Assembly: GCA_040754495.1 (NCBI GenBank)
Contig: JBFMCO010000056.1
Location: 1 to 60,122, forward strand
Direction of reading: 5' to 3'
Length of the DNA: 60,122 nt
From: Candidatus Micrarchaeota archaeon
GTDB taxonomy: Archaea > Micrarchaeota > Micrarchaeia > Anstonellales > Bilamarchaeaceae
Below, one piece after another: positions 21,303-59,923 of the stretch. The notes beneath the pieces are model-generated. The model had not been told where the DNA came from. It did not search any database and worked only from the letters and a program-made list of their open reading frames with translations. The translations under genes were made by a program, and so were the position numbers. Each line of letters starts with the position of its first letter. The first letter of the stretch is position 1.

Positions 21303-21446
21303 TGGACTCGGGGGGAAATGCGTTGGGTTTCCGGTTTTCCGTTTCCAGTTCCGTAACAAAACTGGGAACTCGAGACTGGAAACACAATCTCGCACCCCCG
21401 GCCTCTCCCATGCCAAGGGAGCGCTCTGCTGCTGAGCTACGAGCCC
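21303..21446 (-). tRNA. tRNA-Ala(GGC) with a 72-nt intron at 59/60
   Basis: Acceptor GGGCTCG/CGAGTCC with G3:U70 and A73; D stem GCTC/GAGC; anticodon arm CTCCC-TTGGCAT-GGGAG; T stem GGGGG/CCCCC. Intron 21317..21388. Confidence 0.88.
21317..21388 (-). other. Archaeal tRNA intron with strict hBHBh' motif
   Basis: h = T stem; H = TGCG/CGCA; bulges AG|A and TT|T; h' = TTG.GTTTCC/GGAAAC.CAA. Confidence 0.85.
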
Positions 21447-40530: not shown

Positions 40531-40687
40531 GCCCCTGTAGCGCAGTCCGCCTTTTGGGAAAAGGCGGTCCAAAACCGCCTGATGAAAACCCTTCGGGTTT
40601 TGGGTCGTTTCAAACAAAAGCCGGGCGTCACGGTAGCGCGCGTCCTTGGTAAGGACGAGGTCCGGGGTTCAAATCCCCGCGGGGGCT
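40531..40687 (+). tRNA. tRNA-Thr(GGU) with an 85-nt intron at 15/16
   Basis: Acceptor GCCCCTG/CGGGGGC, U73; spliced D-loop AG|CGGTA; anticodon arm CGTCC-TTGGTAA-GGACG; T arm CGGGG-TTCAAAT-CCCCG. Intron 40546..40630. Confidence 0.88.
40546..40630 (+). other. Archaeal tRNA intron with relaxed HBh' motif
   Basis: H = GCGC/GCGT; bulges AG|T and CA|C; h' = CCG.CTTTTG/CAAAAG.CGG; no outer h helix. Confidence 0.8.
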
Positions 40688-40727: not shown

Positions 40728-40764
40728 GGTTTCCGGTTTCGGGTTCAGGGTTTCCGGTCCCGGG
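40728..40764. repeat. Short tandem array of degenerate TTCCGGT/ACCGGAA heptamers
   Basis: TTCCGGT TTCGGGT TCAGGGT TTCCGGT. Similar arrays at 21325..21352, 30993..31022, 32964..32992, 40466..40489, 56393..56418, 56692..56725 and 56760..56780. Confidence 0.7.
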
Positions 40765-44391: not shown

Positions 44392-45152
44392 GACTGCTGA
44401 TGCTTTTGTTAGCCGGAGCCCTGCTGTTCGCAGGTTGCGCAACTCCACCTGCCGGAAACCAGACCGGGCCGGTCCAGACTCCGCCAGCCCAGCCCAACGC
44501 AACGCCGCCGGCGATGGCATGCTCGGAATACTGCCTCACACTGCCGCACATCCAGTGCGTCGGGGAATGGAAGATATCCGGCACCTACCCCAACTGCGTA
44601 TGCGAGTACGAATGCACCACCGCCAACGAAACAGGAAACGGGGAACCGGAAACCAACGCGACACCGCCGGCAGCGCCGCCGGAAGAGCCCCTCGCCACGC
44701 CAACCACCAAGTCCGTATCCCAGCTCCTCTATGACGCCATGGCGAGGACCGAGAGCGACTTCTACCGCGAGAACGACGGCTCTTTCATCCAGAAGAACTA
44801 CACCTGGGTCAGGAAGACCCTCCAGCCCGGAGGCCTGGCTTACGACGCGCCAGCTGATGACGTGAAATTCGACGGGAAGGCAATCGCCTCCATCGAGGCG
44901 TTCGGCTATACAGTATTCGAAGACCAGGCAGATGATGTCAAAAAGGCATACGGCGCCGCAATCTTCAAGGCGAAAACCACGCCTCTCGACTCATATACCG
45001 GCTCCGACGCGTTCGACATCAATTACTTCTACCAGCAGGAGAACGGCCTCCTCAAGGACTGCTGGGCCTACACCCGGGACTACAACGTGAACCAGGCAGA
45101 TGACTGGTTAGTGACGTATGTCTTCAGGTGCGAGAAAGTGCTTGACAAATGA
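44388..45152 (+). CDS. Lipoprotein with a six-Cys module, paralog of the upstream gene
   Basis: LLFAGC; CSEYCLTLPHIQCVGEWKISGTYPNCVCEYEC; KSVSQLL domain. Confidence 0.8.
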   Translation: MRLLMLLLAGALLFAGCATPPAGNQTGPVQTPPAQPNATPPAMACSEYCLTLPHIQCVGEWKISGTYPNCVCEYECTTANETGNGEPETNATPPAAPPEEPLATPTTKSVSQLLYDAMARTESDFYRENDGSFIQKNYTWVRKTLQPGGLAYDAPADDVKFDGKAIASIEAFGYTVFEDQADDVKKAYGAAIFKAKTTPLDSYTGSDAFDINYFYQQENGLLKDCWAYTRDYNVNQADDWLVTYVFRCEKVLDK

Positions 45153-49726: not shown

Positions 49727-52700
49727 ATGCGGCCTTTTGCATTTTTGGCGATACTGCTGGTTATCTCAGGATTTGCTTTTTCGGTGGACATTTCAGCCTG
49801 CACCAACATCACGGGCTCCAACTCGATCTACAACCTGACAACCAGCGTCAGCGGAGCCCCTTTCCCGTATTACTTCGGCTCTTACAATACCTGCATGCTG
49901 ATAAGCGCATCGAACATAACCCTGGACTGCGGCGGGAACAGCATAACAACGACCGATGACAGCAGTATCGTGATAATCAACGCGTCAAACGTCACAGTTC
50001 GGAACTGCATCCTCAACAACGGCACTGGCATAGAGCTCCTCAGTGCCGGCATCGGTGTGGACGGCCCCCAAAACAGCCAGATAACCAACAACCAGATAAA
50101 CCCCAGCTTCGCAGGCATCAGCGGCGTCCTTTCTTTCGGCGCCGCAGGAAACAACACCATCAGCGGCAACAACATCACCGGCGGGACTTACGGCGTATGG
50201 GAGCCAGGTGAAAATTCCACCATCTCCAATAACCGCTTCCTTAACCAGGGCTCAATCGGGCTGGTGGATGGCGGCTTCAACAATACCGCGACGAACAACT
50301 ACATAAACGGGAGCGGCGGGTTCGGCATGATGCTTGACGGTTCCAACCTCAACGTCATGTCGAACGTGGTAGGGAACAGCACCGATGTAGGAATTTACGT
50401 GAATGCTTACAACTCTACGATCTCCGACAACAACGTCTCCTCCAGCGGCGGACACGGCGTACAGATGGGCGACGGCGGCTCCGACGACGAGGCCAATTTC
50501 GTCGTGCTTTCGGGCAACCGGATATCCTCGAGTGGCGGAAACGGAATCCATGTCGAGGGCAGCACCGATAATCTGATACAGGGCAATATCATATCAGGCG
50601 CGAGCGTGGGCATCTGGCTGCAGAACGGCTTCGGCGAGGGCTTCCACCCTGCCGTGGACAACAGCTTCAGCAACAACGTAGTATCCGGGAGCAGCAGCAA
50701 CGGCGTCTACCTTACCGGCGTCTCTTCGAACAACTTCACGGAGAACAACGTGTCTTTCAACGGGGATGACGGCCTTTTCGTAGACTCGTCGTCCTCAATC
50801 TTCATTGACCCCTCGTATTTCTGCAACAACACGGGCAATGGGCTCACAATCAATGCCTCGACCAACGTGACCGTGACGGACTCCGTCTTCTGCAACAACA
50901 CCGGCAGCGGCCTTCTCGTATTCCTCTCCAATAACAGCCTGATATCAAACAACACGGCGCTGAACCACTCGAGCATCTCCAATGCATTCGACATACAGAA
51001 CAGCACCGGAATAAACCTGAGCGGCAATGTCGCGGATGATGCGAACGTCGGCTTCAATCTCTTATTCAGCCCCTCAAACATACTTGCGAACAACACGGCC
51101 CTCGACACAAGCACCGGCTTCCTTCTCAGTTTCAGCGGAAACAACGTGCTGTCGGGAAATAACGCGTCTAACGGGGGACTGGGCTACCGGAACTCGTTCA
51201 GCTCCGACAATACGACCTTCCTGAACAACTATGCCCAAAACAACACCCTTGCCGGTTTCTTCGTGGCCGAAGGCTCGGATAATGTCACGCTCCGCGCCAA
51301 CACCGCCCTGAACAACAGCCTCCAGGGCTTCGAAGTCACAATCGGCTCCGACAACAACACCCTGGAATCGAACCTGGCCTCCAGGAACGGCGGCACAGGC
51401 TTCATTATAATAACAAACACCGGAAACAACCTGACCAACAACACGGCGTTCAATAACACGGGGGCGGGCTTCGAGTGCTCATCCGCAAATAATTCCCTCT
51501 TAATCAACAACACGGCCACCTTCAACGGAGGAAGGGGGCTGCTGCTAAGCTCGTGCCACAATAACCTGATAAGCGACGGCATCTTCAACAACAACTCCAA
51601 TACCGGGGTCCAGGCGTCCTTCAGCACGAACAACACCTTCCGGAGGAACGTCGTCGCGAACAACACGTTCGGCGGCTTCACGATAGCCCAGGGCTCGAAC
51701 GACAGCGTAATCGCCAACAACACCGTTTTCCTCACTACCGACGCATACTCATTCAGCCTCAGCTCGAGCAGGAACCTGGTGGCGAACAACACCGCATTCA
51801 ACAACTCAGGAACCGGCTTCCGCGCGGTCTCGGCAGCCAACAACAATACGTTCCTGAACAACACGGCCTACCGCAACGCGATAGGTTTCGACATGACCTC
51901 TGCAAACGGGAACAACCTCACGGGCAACACCGCGCACTCGAACACGCAGGCAGGAGTAACGATAGGCGGCGCGACCACGAACGTCTCCACGCACCACATC
52001 TACAACAACACGGTCGGCCTTGCCCTCAGCGGGAATCTCTTCAGCGTCAGCCTGAGGGAGGTAATATTCGACAACCCCGCCGGCAATTTCGCTGACTTCA
52101 CGAACGTCAGCCTGAACGACACCATCCCGGTATCCGGCGGCTCATACAACATGACTTGGAGCGCCCTCCCGGCCGCGCTGCCCGGTTTCACCGGCTCGTT
52201 TGCGAACAAGCACCTGAATATCACCAACACCTCGTCAAACGCTTCCATAGACAGCATCACCTGGCACTGGACGAACACCGAGTCAGCAAGCTACCTCGAA
52301 GAACGCTTCGAGGTCTGGAAATACAACGCCTCGGGCTGGTCCCAGGTTTCTGCAACCCTTGACCCCGGGACGAATACCCTGAGCGTGGCCAGCCTCGGGC
52401 CGTTCAGCGTTTTCTCGATACTGCAGAACGACGGCTGCCCCGCGCCAATAGCGTCGCCGGGCACATACCTCCTGAATGGCAGCGTGGTCGGCGCCTCGAA
52501 CGATGCCTCCCCGCTCTCCAACTTCAGCTGCATCAAGATAGCGTCTTCGGACGTGGCCCTGGACTGCCAGGGCTTCAGCGTTACCGACAACGGCACCGCG
52601 GGAACGACCTACGGCATTCTGCTGAACAATTCCGCTACGAACGTAACCGTAAGGAACTGCGTGGTCTCCGGCTACAGCGTCGGCATGAGGACCATCTCGT

Positions 52701-55700
52701 CCGACAACGGGCTGTTCGTCAACAACACCGCGTTCAACAACTCGCTCTACGGATTCAACCTGGACAGCTCATCGGATTCGAACCTGCTTGCCAACAACAC
52801 CGCATACAACAACACGGCCGGCTTCTTCCTCGTGGGCACGGCAAACGGCAACAACCTCACGAACAACACCGCCCACAGCAACGTCAACTACGGAATAATC
52901 CTCCAGTCCGGCGCGCTGCTCAACCGCCTGGTTTCCAACCTTGCCTACAACAACTCGTTTGCAGGATTCGGCGTCCTAATAGGCTCCAACACGAATACGC
53001 TCTTTAACAACATCGGCCATTCGAACGGGCAATTCGGGTTCTATCTGGATACGGTCAACTCGACCAACATGACCAGCAACACAGCGTACAACAACTCCAA
53101 CTCCGGCATCGAGCTCGTATCGAGCCCGGCCAACCTCCTTGCCGACAACAACGCCTCGAACAACAGCTTCGACGGGCTGGTCCTGGTAACCTCCAGCAAC
53201 AACGTGGTCGACCCGTCGTACTTCTGCGGCAACGGGGATGACGGCATCTACGTTTCGTCCTCCAGCGGCTCGCTCATCACTGACAACGTCGCCTGCAACA
53301 ACGGCGGCAACGGGATAGAGGTATCCGCCTCGTCCAGCGTCACGCTGGGAAATAACAGCGTCTTCGGCAACTCCGACCACGGTATATTCCTGTCGTCGGT
53401 GACCTTCAGCAGCCTTGCCGGAAACGGCGTCTACAACAACAGCGGGGCTTTCGTCTCAGGCATATACCTTGGCTCCTCGTCCAACAACACGCTCTCAGGC
53501 AACACCGTGTACAACAACTCCGTCTATGGCATCCGGCTTTTCGCGAGCTCGGACAACAACCTCACCAACAACTCTGCATACGACAACTTCAACGGGATAT
53601 TCGCTGCGACCTCGCCATTCAACAACCGCTTCGTGAATAACACTGCGCACGACAACCCCAACGACGGCTTCACGGTATCGGGCGGCGGCGGGAACTTCTT
53701 CAGCGGCAACACGGCCTACCTCAACTCAAGGGGCTTCAATCTCGATACCGGCCCGGACAACACCCTGAGCGGCAACGCTGCATACAACAACTCCAACGGG
53801 TTCAGCCTGGCGGCAAGCGACAACAACTCGCTGGGCAGCAACCTCGCCTACAACAACACCAACACCGGATTCAGGCTGGAGGTGGGCTCGGACGGCAACA
53901 CCCTGTCCAACAACACGGCCACGGAAAACCTTTACGGTTTCAGGGTCGAATCCGGCTCGGACGACAACGACCTCACGAGCAACAATGGCTCCGGCAACAT
54001 ATTATCCGGCCTTGTCATAACCGACTCGAACGGCAACACGGTCGACCCGTCGTTCTTCTGCAACAACGGAGGAAGCGGCATCGAAGTGGACAACTCGAAC
54101 GATACCATTGTCGAAGATTCGACCGCCTGCCTCAACGGCGATGACGGCGTCCAGGTCACAGGCTCCACGGATATCACGCTGGACAACGTGAGCGCCTACA
54201 ACAACACGAACGGATTCAGCTTCCTCTTCGGAGGCTCCACGAGCGGAAACGCCTTCTCCAACAATGCCTACAACAACAGCGCCTCGGGCTTCTCCGTATC
54301 AGTGGAAAACATGCTGGGCTTCAACTTCACCGACAATAACGCAGCCGAGAACGGCGCGAACGGCTTCACGGTCAACGGGGCCGCAAGCGACCTCGTGCTC
54401 TTCCAGGACAACAACGCGACCGATAACGCCGACATGGGCTTCGACGTGGAGAACCTCGACCTCGTCAGCGTCATACACAACAATGCAACCGGGAACGGCG
54501 GCATAGCGTTCTACCTGTTCAGCACCCAGTCCTACCTGCTCCCTGTCCACAACAACACCGCGACCGGCAACGGCGGCGACGGCTTCGTCTTCGAAAGCGC
54601 CGAGGCCAATGTCTCGGGTAACCTGGCCGATTCCAACGGCGGCTCGGGCTTCATCTTCGACGACATGTTCATGGGCGGAACGTCCATCCTGAACAACACC
54701 GCCTCAGGAAACGCGGGCAACGGCTTCGATGCAAAGTCCTTCATCGGAACCTCCGGCCTTCTCGTGAACAACACGGCCCGCAGCAACGGGCAGGCCGGCC
54801 TGTACGCAGCGTCGCTCCTTGCCCCGACCATGGCGGTGGGCGACCACTACTACAACAACAGCCCCGACTTCCTGGCAAACGGCACCGGAATCAACGTGAC
54901 GCTCTCAGGGGTGGTCTTCGACAGCCCGGCCGGCCTCTACCCGGACTACACCAACCTGTCCCTCAACGACACCGTGGCATCGGCATACTCCATAGACTGG
55001 ACGAACAACGCCAGCAGCCTGCCTCTTCCGGGGAACCATATCTCATTCGCGCAGAAGTTCGTCAATATAACGAACCTCTCCGGAAACGTTTCCATAGATT
55101 CAATAGTATGGCACTGGCTCGATTCCGAGACCGGAGGATACAACGAGGCGCAGTTCCAGCTGTGGAAGTTCAACCCCATAAGCCTCTGGGCATTCCAGAA
55201 CCAGAGCCCTGACACGGCCACGAACACCCTGTCTCTCAGCAACCTCAGCAGCTTCAGCGACTTTGCAATCCTGCAGAACGCGCCGCAGCAGCCGCAGCCG
55301 GAGGACGGGCAGCCTTCCGAGGAAGGCCTCGATGTGGGGATAAAGCCATCCTGCAACGGCTTCATAATAACCGTAAAAGACAGCGGCGACGCGGTAGAGG
55401 ACGCATTCGTTGAAATCAACGACGAGACGCACGGCACGGAGCTCAGCCCGAGATACACCAACTCCTCTGGCCAGGCATTCGTAGACATCTGCGACATAGA
55501 AGTCAGCATAGACGCCACGAAGTCCGGCAAGGACGGCTCAAAATCAGGCTTCGCGGCCTGCGGCATCTGCCCGGAGTGCGCGACAGACGAGGACTGCCTC
55601 GGAAGCGAGCAGTGCACCAACCAGCAGTGCGTGCCAATCTACTGCCCTGACGGCGAGGCAGTCGACCATGCCTGCGAGCTTTACGAATGCACATCCGACA

Positions 55701-56362
55701 ACGACTGCCCCGAAGGGCAGCAGTGCATCGGCCACGAGTGCAAGACGGTCTTCGAGTGCGATGGCAACGAGGACTGCCTGCCTGCGCAGTTCTGCGAAAT
55801 ACCTATCGGGCAGCCGGGCGGAAGCTGCAAGGACGTGCAGTGCGCCTGCGGCACTATAATGGACCATGCCTGCATCAGCTTCGAGTGCTGCTCAGACAGC
55901 GACTGCCCGGCCGGGGGGCGGTGCATCTCCAACGCATGCGTGCAGGCGGACGTCACCTGCCCGTCTACAGGCGTAGTGGGCGACGAGAAGACCTGCGAGG
56001 CGAAGGAGGACGGACAGGCTTGCGAGGACTGCGATTATATCGTCACCGACCCCTCAGGCAAGAACTTCACCGGGCGTACGGACGAGAACGGCAACTTTGA
56101 CCTTCCGCTGCGGTTCGAGGGCACCTACAGGGTGGCCCTCCTCAGGAACGGCACGGTGGTAAAGGTCATCGAGGTCAAGGCCTTCCCGAAGGGTGAAGGG
56201 GAAGGGGATGGAAAACCGTCCGCCGCAGGATTTGATGCGGCCACCGCGATCTTCATAATCGTCCTTGCCCTCCTTGTGGTGGCGGGGCTGCTGTACTGGA
56301 GGAAAAGGGGGAAGAAGGCTGAGCCGAAAGCGGCCAAGGCCGATAAGCCCCCGGCAAAGTAG
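49727..56362 (+). CDS. Giant parallel beta-helix surface protein B (2211 aa)
   Basis: Same architecture as A, with the beta-helix plus SIDSI.WHW module present twice; C-terminal TM. Confidence 0.9.
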   Translation: MRPFAFLAILLVISGFAFSVDISACTNITGSNSIYNLTTSVSGAPFPYYFGSYNTCMLISASNITLDCGGNSITTTDDSSIVIINASNVTVRNCILNNGTGIELLSAGIGVDGPQNSQITNNQINPSFAGISGVLSFGAAGNNTISGNNITGGTYGVWEPGENSTISNNRFLNQGSIGLVDGGFNNTATNNYINGSGGFGMMLDGSNLNVMSNVVGNSTDVGIYVNAYNSTISDNNVSSSGGHGVQMGDGGSDDEANFVVLSGNRISSSGGNGIHVEGSTDNLIQGNIISGASVGIWLQNGFGEGFHPAVDNSFSNNVVSGSSSNGVYLTGVSSNNFTENNVSFNGDDGLFVDSSSSIFIDPSYFCNNTGNGLTINASTNVTVTDSVFCNNTGSGLLVFLSNNSLISNNTALNHSSISNAFDIQNSTGINLSGNVADDANVGFNLLFSPSNILANNTALDTSTGFLLSFSGNNVLSGNNASNGGLGYRNSFSSDNTTFLNNYAQNNTLAGFFVAEGSDNVTLRANTALNNSLQGFEVTIGSDNNTLESNLASRNGGTGFIIITNTGNNLTNNTAFNNTGAGFECSSANNSLLINNTATFNGGRGLLLSSCHNNLISDGIFNNNSNTGVQASFSTNNTFRRNVVANNTFGGFTIAQGSNDSVIANNTVFLTTDAYSFSLSSSRNLVANNTAFNNSGTGFRAVSAANNNTFLNNTAYRNAIGFDMTSANGNNLTGNTAHSNTQAGVTIGGATTNVSTHHIYNNTVGLALSGNLFSVSLREVIFDNPAGNFADFTNVSLNDTIPVSGGSYNMTWSALPAALPGFTGSFANKHLNITNTSSNASIDSITWHWTNTESASYLEERFEVWKYNASGWSQVSATLDPGTNTLSVASLGPFSVFSILQNDGCPAPIASPGTYLLNGSVVGASNDASPLSNFSCIKIASSDVALDCQGFSVTDNGTAGTTYGILLNNSATNVTVRNCVVSGYSVGMRTISSDNGLFVNNTAFNNSLYGFNLDSSSDSNLLANNTAYNNTAGFFLVGTANGNNLTNNTAHSNVNYGIILQSGALLNRLVSNLAYNNSFAGFGVLIGSNTNTLFNNIGHSNGQFGFYLDTVNSTNMTSNTAYNNSNSGIELVSSPANLLADNNASNNSFDGLVLVTSSNNVVDPSYFCGNGDDGIYVSSSSGSLITDNVACNNGGNGIEVSASSSVTLGNNSVFGNSDHGIFLSSVTFSSLAGNGVYNNSGAFVSGIYLGSSSNNTLSGNTVYNNSVYGIRLFASSDNNLTNNSAYDNFNGIFAATSPFNNRFVNNTAHDNPNDGFTVSGGGGNFFSGNTAYLNSRGFNLDTGPDNTLSGNAAYNNSNGFSLAASDNNSLGSNLAYNNTNTGFRLEVGSDGNTLSNNTATENLYGFRVESGSDDNDLTSNNGSGNILSGLVITDSNGNTVDPSFFCNNGGSGIEVDNSNDTIVEDSTACLNGDDGVQVTGSTDITLDNVSAYNNTNGFSFLFGGSTSGNAFSNNAYNNSASGFSVSVENMLGFNFTDNNAAENGANGFTVNGAASDLVLFQDNNATDNADMGFDVENLDLVSVIHNNATGNGGIAFYLFSTQSYLLPVHNNTATGNGGDGFVFESAEANVSGNLADSNGGSGFIFDDMFMGGTSILNNTASGNAGNGFDAKSFIGTSGLLVNNTARSNGQAGLYAASLLAPTMAVGDHYYNNSPDFLANGTGINVTLSGVVFDSPAGLYPDYTNLSLNDTVASAYSIDWTNNASSLPLPGNHISFAQKFVNITNLSGNVSIDSIVWHWLDSETGGYNEAQFQLWKFNPISLWAFQNQSPDTATNTLSLSNLSSFSDFAILQNAPQQPQPEDGQPSEEGLDVGIKPSCNGFIITVKDSGDAVEDAFVEINDETHGTELSPRYTNSSGQAFVDICDIEVSIDATKSGKDGSKSGFAACGICPECATDEDCLGSEQCTNQQCVPIYCPDGEAVDHACELYECTSDNDCPEGQQCIGHECKTVFECDGNEDCLPAQFCEIPIGQPGGSCKDVQCACGTIMDHACISFECCSDSDCPAGGRCISNACVQADVTCPSTGVVGDEKTCEAKEDGQACEDCDYIVTDPSGKNFTGRTDENGNFDLPLRFEGTYRVALLRNGTVVKVIEVKAFPKGEGEGDGKPSAAGFDAATAIFIIVLALLVVAGLLYWRKRGKKAEPKAAKADKPPAK

Positions 56363-56490
56363 GGTTGCAGAAGGGTTCCGGCGCCTCTCAGGACCGGAAA
56401 CAGGGAACCGGAAACCCCTCAGCCGCTGCTGAGTGGAGAAGAATAATAAAAAATTCGCCCCAACCGCGATTTGAACGCGGACAGCAACCT

Positions 56491-56674
56491 TTCCGCCTTT
56501 TGGAAAAAGGCGGCCCAAAACCTGTTGTCGATTTTGCCTTTGCGGGCAAAATAACTTTCAAAAAACCCGAAAGGGTTTTTCAATCGCAGGTTTTTTGGGC
56601 GCTTTTTTCCCAAAACGACAGGGAGCGAAGCTCCCTGTGCCCCATTGTTCGATTCGAACAATAGGGAAGCGCAA
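56491..56674 (-). other. 184-nt canonical-position tRNA intron made of tandem hairpins
   Basis: H = CTGC/GCGG; 3' bulge AA|A closed by the anticodon stem; h' is weak. Confidence 0.78.
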
Positions 56675-56691
56675 CCGCAGGGTTGCGTCCT

Positions 56692-56725
56692 TTCTGTTTC
56701 CGGCACCCGGTTTCGGGTTTCGGAT
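56692..56725 (-). other. 34-nt D-loop tRNA intron made of heptamers; exact junction uncertain by about 1 nt
   Basis: CTG/CAG and TCCG/CGGA helices with an AA|A bulge; removal gives D-loop AACCTGGATA. Confidence 0.7.
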
Positions 56726-56915
56726 ATCCAGGTTAGACTATTGGGGCAGCAATAATGTCTCCCGTCTCCGGTTTCCGGTCAAGGGAGCGGATTTTTGCCC
56801 GATGGACAGATTTAAATAGGTATAGCTTTTAAATTATTCTCTGCATTTTCTCGGTGGTGTTTGGCCTTCCCGAGGGCAGGCCGGCTCATCACTTTCTCAA
56901 AAGTCAGGTGGTATA

Positions 56916-59839: not shown

Positions 59840-59923
59840 GCAGGGGTGGCAGAGCGGTCAAATGCGCCAGCTTGAGGGGCTGGTGGGTTAGTCCCTTCGA
59901 GAGTTCAAATCTCTTCCCCTGCA
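59840..59923 (+). tRNA. tRNA-Leu(GAG), intronless
   Basis: GCAGGGG/CCCCTGC, A73; CCAGC-TTGAGGG-GCTGG; long variable arm; GAGAG-TTCAAAT-CTCTT. Confidence 0.92.

Follow-up and report, generated by a model that had tools for sequence, protein, structure and literature searches.

Disrupted tRNA genes and a three-unit splicing endonuclease (EndA) of the epsilon-2 type have been described in ARMAN-2 (Candidatus Micrarchaeum acidiphilum) (Fujishima et al. 2011, PMC3239211; Hirata et al. 2012, PMC3488258; PMC12397907), and in vitro this enzyme cleaves relaxed (hBH/BHL) motifs as well as strict ones (PMC3239211). A second system is found in Thermoproteales, with their transposed tRNA introns (Fujishima et al. 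2010, summarised in PMC4033280), which serve as a positive control in a preprint (bioRxiv 10.64898/2026.10.13.758758). Of tRNA introns, a 2026 preprint on Asgard archaea states that "how they arrive remains open".

The locus analysed here comes from the same phylum as ARMAN-2, and the genome that carries it (hereafter G000; assembly 80% complete) encodes an EndA of the same architecture. As in ARMAN-2, there are multiple introns per tRNA, located at canonical and non-canonical sites (59/60 in orthologs), and relaxed hBH/BHL motifs. It differs from ARMAN-2 by its lineage (Bilamarchaeaceae-like, GC content 59.5%), by the proportion of interrupted genes (26 of the 33 recognisable tRNA genes, versus 56% reported for ARMAN-2), by introns of up to 184-213 nt and by a recognisable family of hairpin-ended introns. 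Multi-intron tRNA genes in the company of an epsilon-2 EndA are already known in Micrarchaeota: what is added here is a series of 24 orthologs and a modular, nested intron family that crosses isotypes. Judging from the sequences, the locus is very probably a functional and apparently sole tRNA-Arg(GCG) gene with two EndA-cut introns, the longer of which is an enlarged member of that family.

The window, i.e. the whole 60,122-nt stretch of DNA that was analysed, carries the gene on its minus strand (Table 1). In the initial annotation, a tRNA-Arg(GCG) interrupted by introns of 34 and 184 nt had been proposed within 292 nt. Removal of both introns indeed leaves a 74-mer that ARAGORN folds into a mismatch-free cloverleaf and identifies as tRNA-Arg(GCG), and this predicted product is identical at 74/74 positions to the intronless gene of a related genome (G188). 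The introns represent 218/292 nt (74.7%) of the gene, in agreement with the 75% announced. All of the expected landmarks, namely U8, A14, G18 G19, U33, the T loop GUUCAAAUC and a 7-bp acceptor stem, are present, as seen in the spliced sequence and in the alignment of the G188 gene with the Rfam tRNA model RF00005, in which this identical gene obtains 55.6 bits (E 2e-11; gathering score 29). The identity elements of tRNA-Arg, known from bacterial and other systems, are C35, G36, A20 and a purine at position 73. Here C35, G36, A20 and G73 are all present, and they are conserved across the 24 orthologs. A20, whose presence had been deemed plausible, does lie in the D loop (AACCUGGAUA); it is kept in 24/24 orthologs and is also found in Arg(CCG) and Arg(UCG) of the same genome. 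The gene does not encode CCA at the end of exon 3. The T run that follows the discriminator, which occurs at the same place in all orthologs whose 3' flank was inspected, is likely a transcription terminator. Taken at the level of sequence, these comparisons confirm the locus as a real tRNA gene and no chance pattern.

Table 1. Coordinates of the tRNA-Arg(GCG) gene and of its parts in the window
Feature	Position	Strand	Length (nt)	Remarks
Whole tRNA-Arg(GCG) gene	56456-56747	minus	292	22+34+17+184+35 (exon 1, intron 1, exon 2, intron 2, exon 3)
Exon 1	56726-56747	minus	22	acceptor 5' strand, U8 A9, D-stem 5' strand, D loop to U20a; ends ...CCTGGAT
Intron 1	56692-56725	minus	34	D loop, 20a/21; CCGAAAC/CCGGAAAC-type heptamers; relaxed BHB
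Exon 2	56675-56691	minus	17	AGGACGCAACCCTGCGG: A21, D-stem 3' strand, G26, anticodon stem 5' strand, C32 U33 G34 C35 G36 G37
Anticodon GCG	56676-56678	minus		within exon 2
Intron 2	56491-56674	minus	184	canonical position 37/38; hBH/BHL-type motif
M1	56616-56666	minus	51	double hairpin inside the 5' arm of HP1
P1 5' strand	56590-56598	minus		CCAAAAAAC; pairs with GTTTTGG (56515-56521); part of the family consensus structure
M2	56555-56585	minus		central hairpin; AAAAACCC-UUUC-GGGUUUUU plus flanks
M3	56531-56552	minus		extra hairpin, AUUUUGCC...GGCAAAAU; only in long family members
HP2	56493-56513	minus		9-bp palindromic end hairpin, CCGCCUUUU-UCC-AAAAGGCGG
Exon 3	56456-56490	minus	35	AGGTTG...TTGGGGCG: A38, anticodon stem 3' strand, 4-nt variable loop, T arm GUUCAAAUC, acceptor 3' strand, G73
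T6 run	56448-56453	minus		2 nt past the discriminator

In its unspliced form, the gene elicits no ARAGORN call, either by default or with introns allowed up to 300 nt, and the region 56300-56900 returns only noise from Rfam, both at the gathering threshold and with E values of up to 10 admitted. Standard tRNA finders likewise miss most other tRNA genes of G000, where the Rfam tRNA model rises above threshold at only 14 places. As a result of these omissions, such metagenome-assembled genomes look tRNA-poor and may fail quality criteria based on tRNA counting.

Orthologs were collected by searching the DNA of relatives and parsing the matches from their exons outwards, which yielded the gene in 23 other genomes of the same genus, hence 24 genes with that of G000. 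Genes for aEF-1beta and ribosomal protein S13 flank the tRNA gene collinearly in most of them. Each of the 24 genes reduces to a 74-nt tRNA once zero to three introns are removed at 20a/21, 37/38 and 59/60: D-loop introns (20a/21) of 32-45 nt occur in 6/24 genes, anticodon-loop introns (37/38) of 13-184 nt in 22/24, and T-loop introns (59/60) of 31-118 nt in 9/24. Gene length ranges from 74 to 294 nt; the 292-nt gene of the window ties for second longest, and its 184-nt intron is the longest single intron of the series. Exon 1 is 100% identical in at least nine further genomes of the genus. Besides G188, the gene is intronless in G022, at the syntenic locus, where the sole difference is at position 37 (A for G; 57.5 bits with the Rfam tRNA model). 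G000, G021 and G188 have identical exons while their intron totals are 218, 163 and 0 nt, respectively; selection therefore acts on the exons. On an EndA tree (FastTree), which is a rough guide only, being drawn from a single gene with no support values shown and two empty rows, the intron-free G022 and G188 are sisters inside a clade with G000 and G182, each of which has a D-loop and a 37/38 intron. This topology weakly suggests that one complete and precise loss of introns may have occurred in the G022/G188 lineage.

Four of the Arg(GCG) orthologs have three introns each (D loop, 37/38 and T loop 59/60). The T-loop introns reach 112-118 nt, and several begin with the same hairpin followed by a CCAAAAAC module. 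The loci concerned by these observations are L019 (G011), L143 (G023), L134 (G178), L132 (G182), L139 (G189), L142 (G184) and L144 (G012).

The 184-nt intron proved to have relatives in tRNA genes of other isotypes. In G000, Arg(CCG), Glu(UUC), Glu(CUC) and Gly(CCC) have introns of 103-105 nt that align with a mean column identity of 78%, in an alignment that also contains the Arg(GCG) intron of G001. The family fold comprises a 10-bp hairpin, HP1, then a helix, P1 (AAAAC/GUUUU), enclosing the central hairpin M2, and finally the 9-bp hairpin HP2; compensatory changes are found in both end hairpins. Intron 2 follows this layout, with two additions, M3 and M1. The latter lies between GCGCTT (56667-56672) and TTTTGGGAAAAAAGCGC (56599-56615, the T run of HP1), i.e. 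it interrupts HP1, which is uninterrupted in the orthologous introns of G014, G018 and G024. Inserts resembling M1 are found at the same place of HP1 in Leu(CAG) of G000 and Glu(UUC) of G011; two tRNAs of G021 have one in the 5' arm of HP2. In Thr(CGU), HP2 has an insert in its 3' arm that matches M1 at 35/54 positions as the reverse complement, compared with 30/59 as read, a difference that is no more than suggestive of a copy of M1 in reverse complement. In Val(GAC) and Leu(CAG), the same HP2 spot is taken by a double hairpin of a second type.

The initial annotation had raised the possibility that the long intron is nested. Structurally, this is borne out by the insertion of M1 into an otherwise continuous hairpin; as regards splicing, the idea finds no counterpart, for the boundaries of M1 show no convincing BHB or separate splice motif, and M1 therefore need not be spliced separately.

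In global alignments, intron 2 shares 81% identity with the intron of Glu(UUC) in G011 and 79% with that of Leu(CAG) in G000, versus at most 58% for the orthologous Arg(GCG) introns. For G182, which is among the closest relatives on the rough EndA tree, the identity with its 77-nt intron is only 34%. Since intron 2 is closer to Glu and Leu introns than to its Arg orthologs, introns are exchanged between tRNA genes; transposition, gene conversion through the conserved ends and an RNA-mediated path are candidate routes. A covariance model of the family detects about 27 loci in G000, with the present intron at 44 bits. Run against 151 evenly sampled genomes of the phylum, it found the family in 5/7 genomes of the same genus, in 0/20 genomes of other genera of the same taxonomic family, weakly in one genome of another taxonomic family and in none elsewhere; the model is narrow (five sequences), so this distribution is a lower bound. 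In the genomes searched, the family is essentially confined to one genus, and no description of a hairpin-ended tRNA intron family was found in the literature searched.

Eight family copies were not placed in tRNA genes by a simple finder. They include, in G000, C4:14052-14150, C29:3031-3126, C28:26812-26882, C50:30730-30819 and C23:10270-10364, the last of which abuts the 3' end of a tRNA-Gly(GCC). We did not retain these as free copies of the family: several have tRNA-like flanks and are probably genes with T-loop introns.

The behaviour of these introns, and only their behaviour, recalls that of the Thermoproteales introns as summarised in the review: near-identical introns occur in different isotypes and positions, introns are closer to non-orthologous than to orthologous ones, and gains and losses are rapid between related genomes. 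As far as that summary goes, the differences are the phylum, the endonuclease, which is of the epsilon-2 type here and not alpha2-beta2, and the family itself, with its three-helix architecture, palindromic end hairpins, nested modules and restriction to about one genus. A tentative reading, which we regard as plausible if somewhat more apt to be wrong than right, is that the 184-nt intron consists of modules nested in one another, each of them mobile in its own right: a three-helix intron that moves, or is converted, between unrelated tRNA genes and between species of the genus, and a 51-nt element that inserts into the stems of its terminal palindromes, whichever the arm and perhaps whichever the orientation. 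In that case, the genus would constitute a second natural system for the spread of protein-spliced introns, after Thermoproteales and more tractable. Whatever the route, a hairpin-ended family common to unrelated tRNA genes is a clue to how introns spread: one orthologous gene varies from 74 to 294 nt over 24 species of a single genus, with modules shared across isotypes, and the ortholog series offers dated gains, losses and exchanges that are open to direct testing.

The marked secondary structure of intron 2 could also mean that it is kept after excision as a functional stable RNA, either a circular structured RNA or a guide RNA. There is a precedent in Haloferax volcanii, where the 105-nt intron of tRNA-Trp carries a box C/D guide RNA. 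The two introns have in common that they are long, structured 37/38 introns of an archaeal tRNA and that they are excised by EndA (a prediction in the present case). The minimum free energy of intron 2 is -85.1 kcal/mol, compared with -52.4 +/- 4.2 kcal/mol for shuffled sequences (z = -7.8). Moreover, the hairpins are conserved in the family with compensatory changes, M2 contains one G.U pair in 5/5 sequences, and all full-length family copies lying in tRNA genes of G000 are in the sense orientation. Against a retained RNA stands, first, the sequence itself: unlike the Haloferax intron, neither intron 1 nor intron 2 contains a C/D box (RUGAUGA or CUGA), and no Rfam family was matched at E up to 10, nor was there any snoRNA-type match of note. 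Second, the length of this intron in the orthologs ranges from 0 to 163 nt, and two species lack it altogether; no part of it is therefore indispensable for this tRNA. Third, palindromes may be maintained at the DNA level as well. A function for the excised 184-nt RNA is possible but unsupported, and we hold this explanation to be improbable; the reading of intron 2 as an enlarged member of a family of exchanged introns is preferred.

Intron 1 is of a different nature. Tandem Repeats Finder (TRF) lists 324 tandem arrays of period 7 in G000, the commonest unit of which is AAACCGG (GGAAACC/GGTTTCC; 57 arrays plus close variants). These heptamer arrays are intergenic, lie beside many tRNA genes and are found inside at least four of them, including the present gene, where they make up intron 1. 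The six D-loop introns at 20a/21 share only their last few bases, which correspond to the helix strand and the bulge. We read this as an old, polymorphic site whose interior turns over quickly and, in G000, has been taken over by the heptamer repeat. Heptamer arrays also occur in the window at 56757-56780, 56380-56415, 40728-40758 and 44628-44654; the leader (CCGGAAACC) and trailer (GGTTTCCGG) heptamers are complementary, and the trailer copy lies beyond the T-run terminator.

The presence of such a repeat, together with the proportion of intervening sequence (75% of the gene), could be taken as the sign of a decaying pseudogene, overrun by repeats, whose cloverleaf is a mere remnant and which yields no mature tRNA: indeed, intron 1 consists of the commonest simple repeat of the genome and its BHB is imperfect. 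Several observations make this very unlikely. Compared with the intronless gene of G188, the exons show zero substitutions, and the likely terminator has kept its T run. Interruption is no mark of decay in this genome either: 26 of the 33 recognisable tRNA genes exceed 95 nt, i.e. are interrupted, which makes interruption the norm in G000. Finally, no other gene for the same tRNA was found in the assembly, although CGC is in use. CGC and CGU account for 15/51 Arg codons in three neighbouring ORFs, and the search for another Arg(GCG) gene, suggested at the outset, came back empty: none was found in a census of 33 tRNA genes of the 80%-complete assembly, and DNA searches of the assembly returned no further copy of exon 1 or exon 3. 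The census was made of tRNA genes with an intact T arm and acceptor; it replaced a scan of the whole genome for anticodon arms with GCG, which, given its loose T-loop filter, returned hundreds of chance matches and was uninformative. The other Arg genes in the census are Arg(CCG), Arg(UCG) and Arg(UCU). We therefore retain the reading of a functional gene with two introns, and this gene is ordinary for G000. The length of the 184-nt intron had been noted as unusual for an archaeal tRNA. This holds with respect to a review that puts archaeal tRNA introns at "less than 100 nt" (PMC4033280), but not within G000, where Ile-GAU, Thr-CGU, Val-GAC and Leu-CAG have 37/38 introns of 140, 185, 189 and 213 nt, respectively; the 184-nt intron is typical of a class there.

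The enzymes that such a gene calls for are encoded in the genome. The 391-aa EndA of G000 (L020:889-2064) is a full-length match to the ARMAN-2 epsilon-2 structure 4FZ2 (E 1e-132), and G000 also encodes RtcB (551 bits). The same epsilon-2-type EndA is present in 38/40 genomes of the genus and is widespread in records labelled Micrarchaeota. A second, short EndA-like frame is found at G000 C31:19406-19636 (L021:1276-1782, plus strand; PF01974, 32.9 bits; 168-aa ORF).

The splice junctions were compared with the geometry of the bulge-helix-bulge (BHB) motif. In its strict form (hBHBh'), this motif consists of a 4-bp helix and two 3-nt bulges on opposite strands, with the cut after the second base of the bulge. 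Neither intron conforms to the strict form; both conform to relaxed ones. For intron 2, C32-C35 (56677-56680) pairs at all four positions with GCGG (56493-56496), which corresponds to intron bases -6 to -3, and the resulting helix stacks directly on the 5-bp anticodon stem, both being intact in G000. The 3' site lies in the bulge A-A^A38. At the 5' site (G36-G37^U), the structure opens into a multi-helix junction without an inner helix h', which makes it an hBH/BHL motif. The 3' strand of the BHB helix is also the last 4 nt of HP2, i.e. the foot of a very stable stem, out of which it must be pulled; the BHB-competent conformer has a free energy of -88.9 kcal/mol, compared with a minimum of -92.8 kcal/mol, hence a cost of 3.9 kcal/mol. 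Among the 22 orthologous introns at 37/38, the helix has 4/4 pairs in 13 and 3/4 pairs in nine, with GCGG, GCAG, GTGG, GCTG, GAGG, ACAG or ACGG as the 3' strand; A38 is invariant, and the last two bases of the intron vary.

The fold predicted for intron 1 comprises the D stem, a 3x3 internal loop containing the 3' site (AA^A), a CUG/CAG helix extended by a G19.A pair, the 5' site (AU^A) and an intron hairpin. The cuts are symmetric: on either strand they fall two bases 3' of the helix. This motif is relaxed in two ways: the helix includes one G.A pair, and the 3' site lies within the 3x3 internal loop and not in a bulge. In the orthologs with a D-loop intron, the partner of CUGG is CCAG or CCGG (4/4 pairs) in four genes and ACAG (3/4 pairs) in G011 and G000, and GGAT/.../AGGAC is the only register that fits all six genes. 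Altogether, at least three of four helix pairs can form in 35/37 introns at the three sites, compared with about 15% expected per random site (related genomes are not independent). The helix is conserved across homologous introns, with covariation, its 3' strands being variable. The junctions CTGGAT/AGGAC and CTGCGG/AGGTTG, which had been put forward from the window sequence, are thus backed by BHB geometry and by the 23 other orthologs.

A different register was considered for the long intron. If it were cut 2 nt further 5' at both ends, the loop would read CUGCAAA and the product would be a tRNA-Cys(GCA), which is the call made by ARAGORN, with a 184-nt intron, once intron 1 is removed. The shifted register breaks the BHB geometry, unlike the Arg register, which provides a 4/4 helix and a 3-nt bulge. 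It gives no sensible loop with ortholog introns ending in AT, AC, AG, CA or TA, and in the intronless genes the loop is CUGCGAA (G022) and CUGCGGA (G188). In addition, the discriminator of tRNA-Cys is U73, and here it is G73. The Cys register, highly improbable on the combined grounds of geometry, orthologs and discriminator, was rejected in favour of Arg(GCG). Last, the suggestion that the 184-nt insert is a self-splicing group I-like intron, prompted by its position (37/38) and its size near 200 nt, as in small introns of bacterial tRNA anticodon loops (PMC4033280), and by the existence of group I introns in archaea (PMC6125680), is scarcely credible in view of the absence of any RF00028/Intron_gpI or other ribozyme match at E up to 10 in 56300-56900, a structure that is a chain of simple hairpins with no ribozyme core detected, a BHB motif of relaxed type at the junctions together with a gene for the cognate endonuclease, and family members as short as 13-33 nt in orthologs. 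More generally, Rfam returns only noise in that region, which rules out the known families, group I introns and C/D RNAs among them, as far as the models reach.

We propose that transcription of the minus strand would give a precursor of about 300 nt or more, from which the three-unit EndA would cut 34 nt at 20a/21 and 184 nt at 37/38 by recognising the two BHB-like motifs. RtcB would then join the three exons and, after addition of CCA, the 74-nt tRNA would be charged and would read CGU and CGC. The gene would supply natural substrates for an epsilon-2 endonuclease: a 184-nt multi-helix intron, and a D-loop intron built from repeats with a G.A pair in the helix.

Other tRNA genes are present in the window. 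A hidden tRNA-Thr(GGU) of 157 nt lies at 40531-40687 (plus strand); its 83-nt D-loop intron starts after ...GCGCAGT and shows first the end hairpin of the family, then CCAAAAC and then a CUGAUGA motif, and Rfam detects only a partial tRNA (40624-40679, 36.4 bits). The hairpins of this intron and of the Arg(GCG) intron look inverted with respect to each other only in that HP1 is set against HP2, the mirror-image ends of elements with the same orientation. A sub-threshold tRNA-like match (21385-21446, minus strand, 26.3 bits) may be another interrupted gene. An intronless tRNA-Leu(GAG) is found at 59840-59923 (plus strand, 53.6 bits). Finally, the neighbour of the Arg(GCG) gene on the plus strand, at 49727-56362, encodes a 2211-aa right-handed beta-helix/NosD repeat protein (Pfam E 1e-121), probably a giant surface protein, and ends 94 bases from the 3' end of the tRNA.
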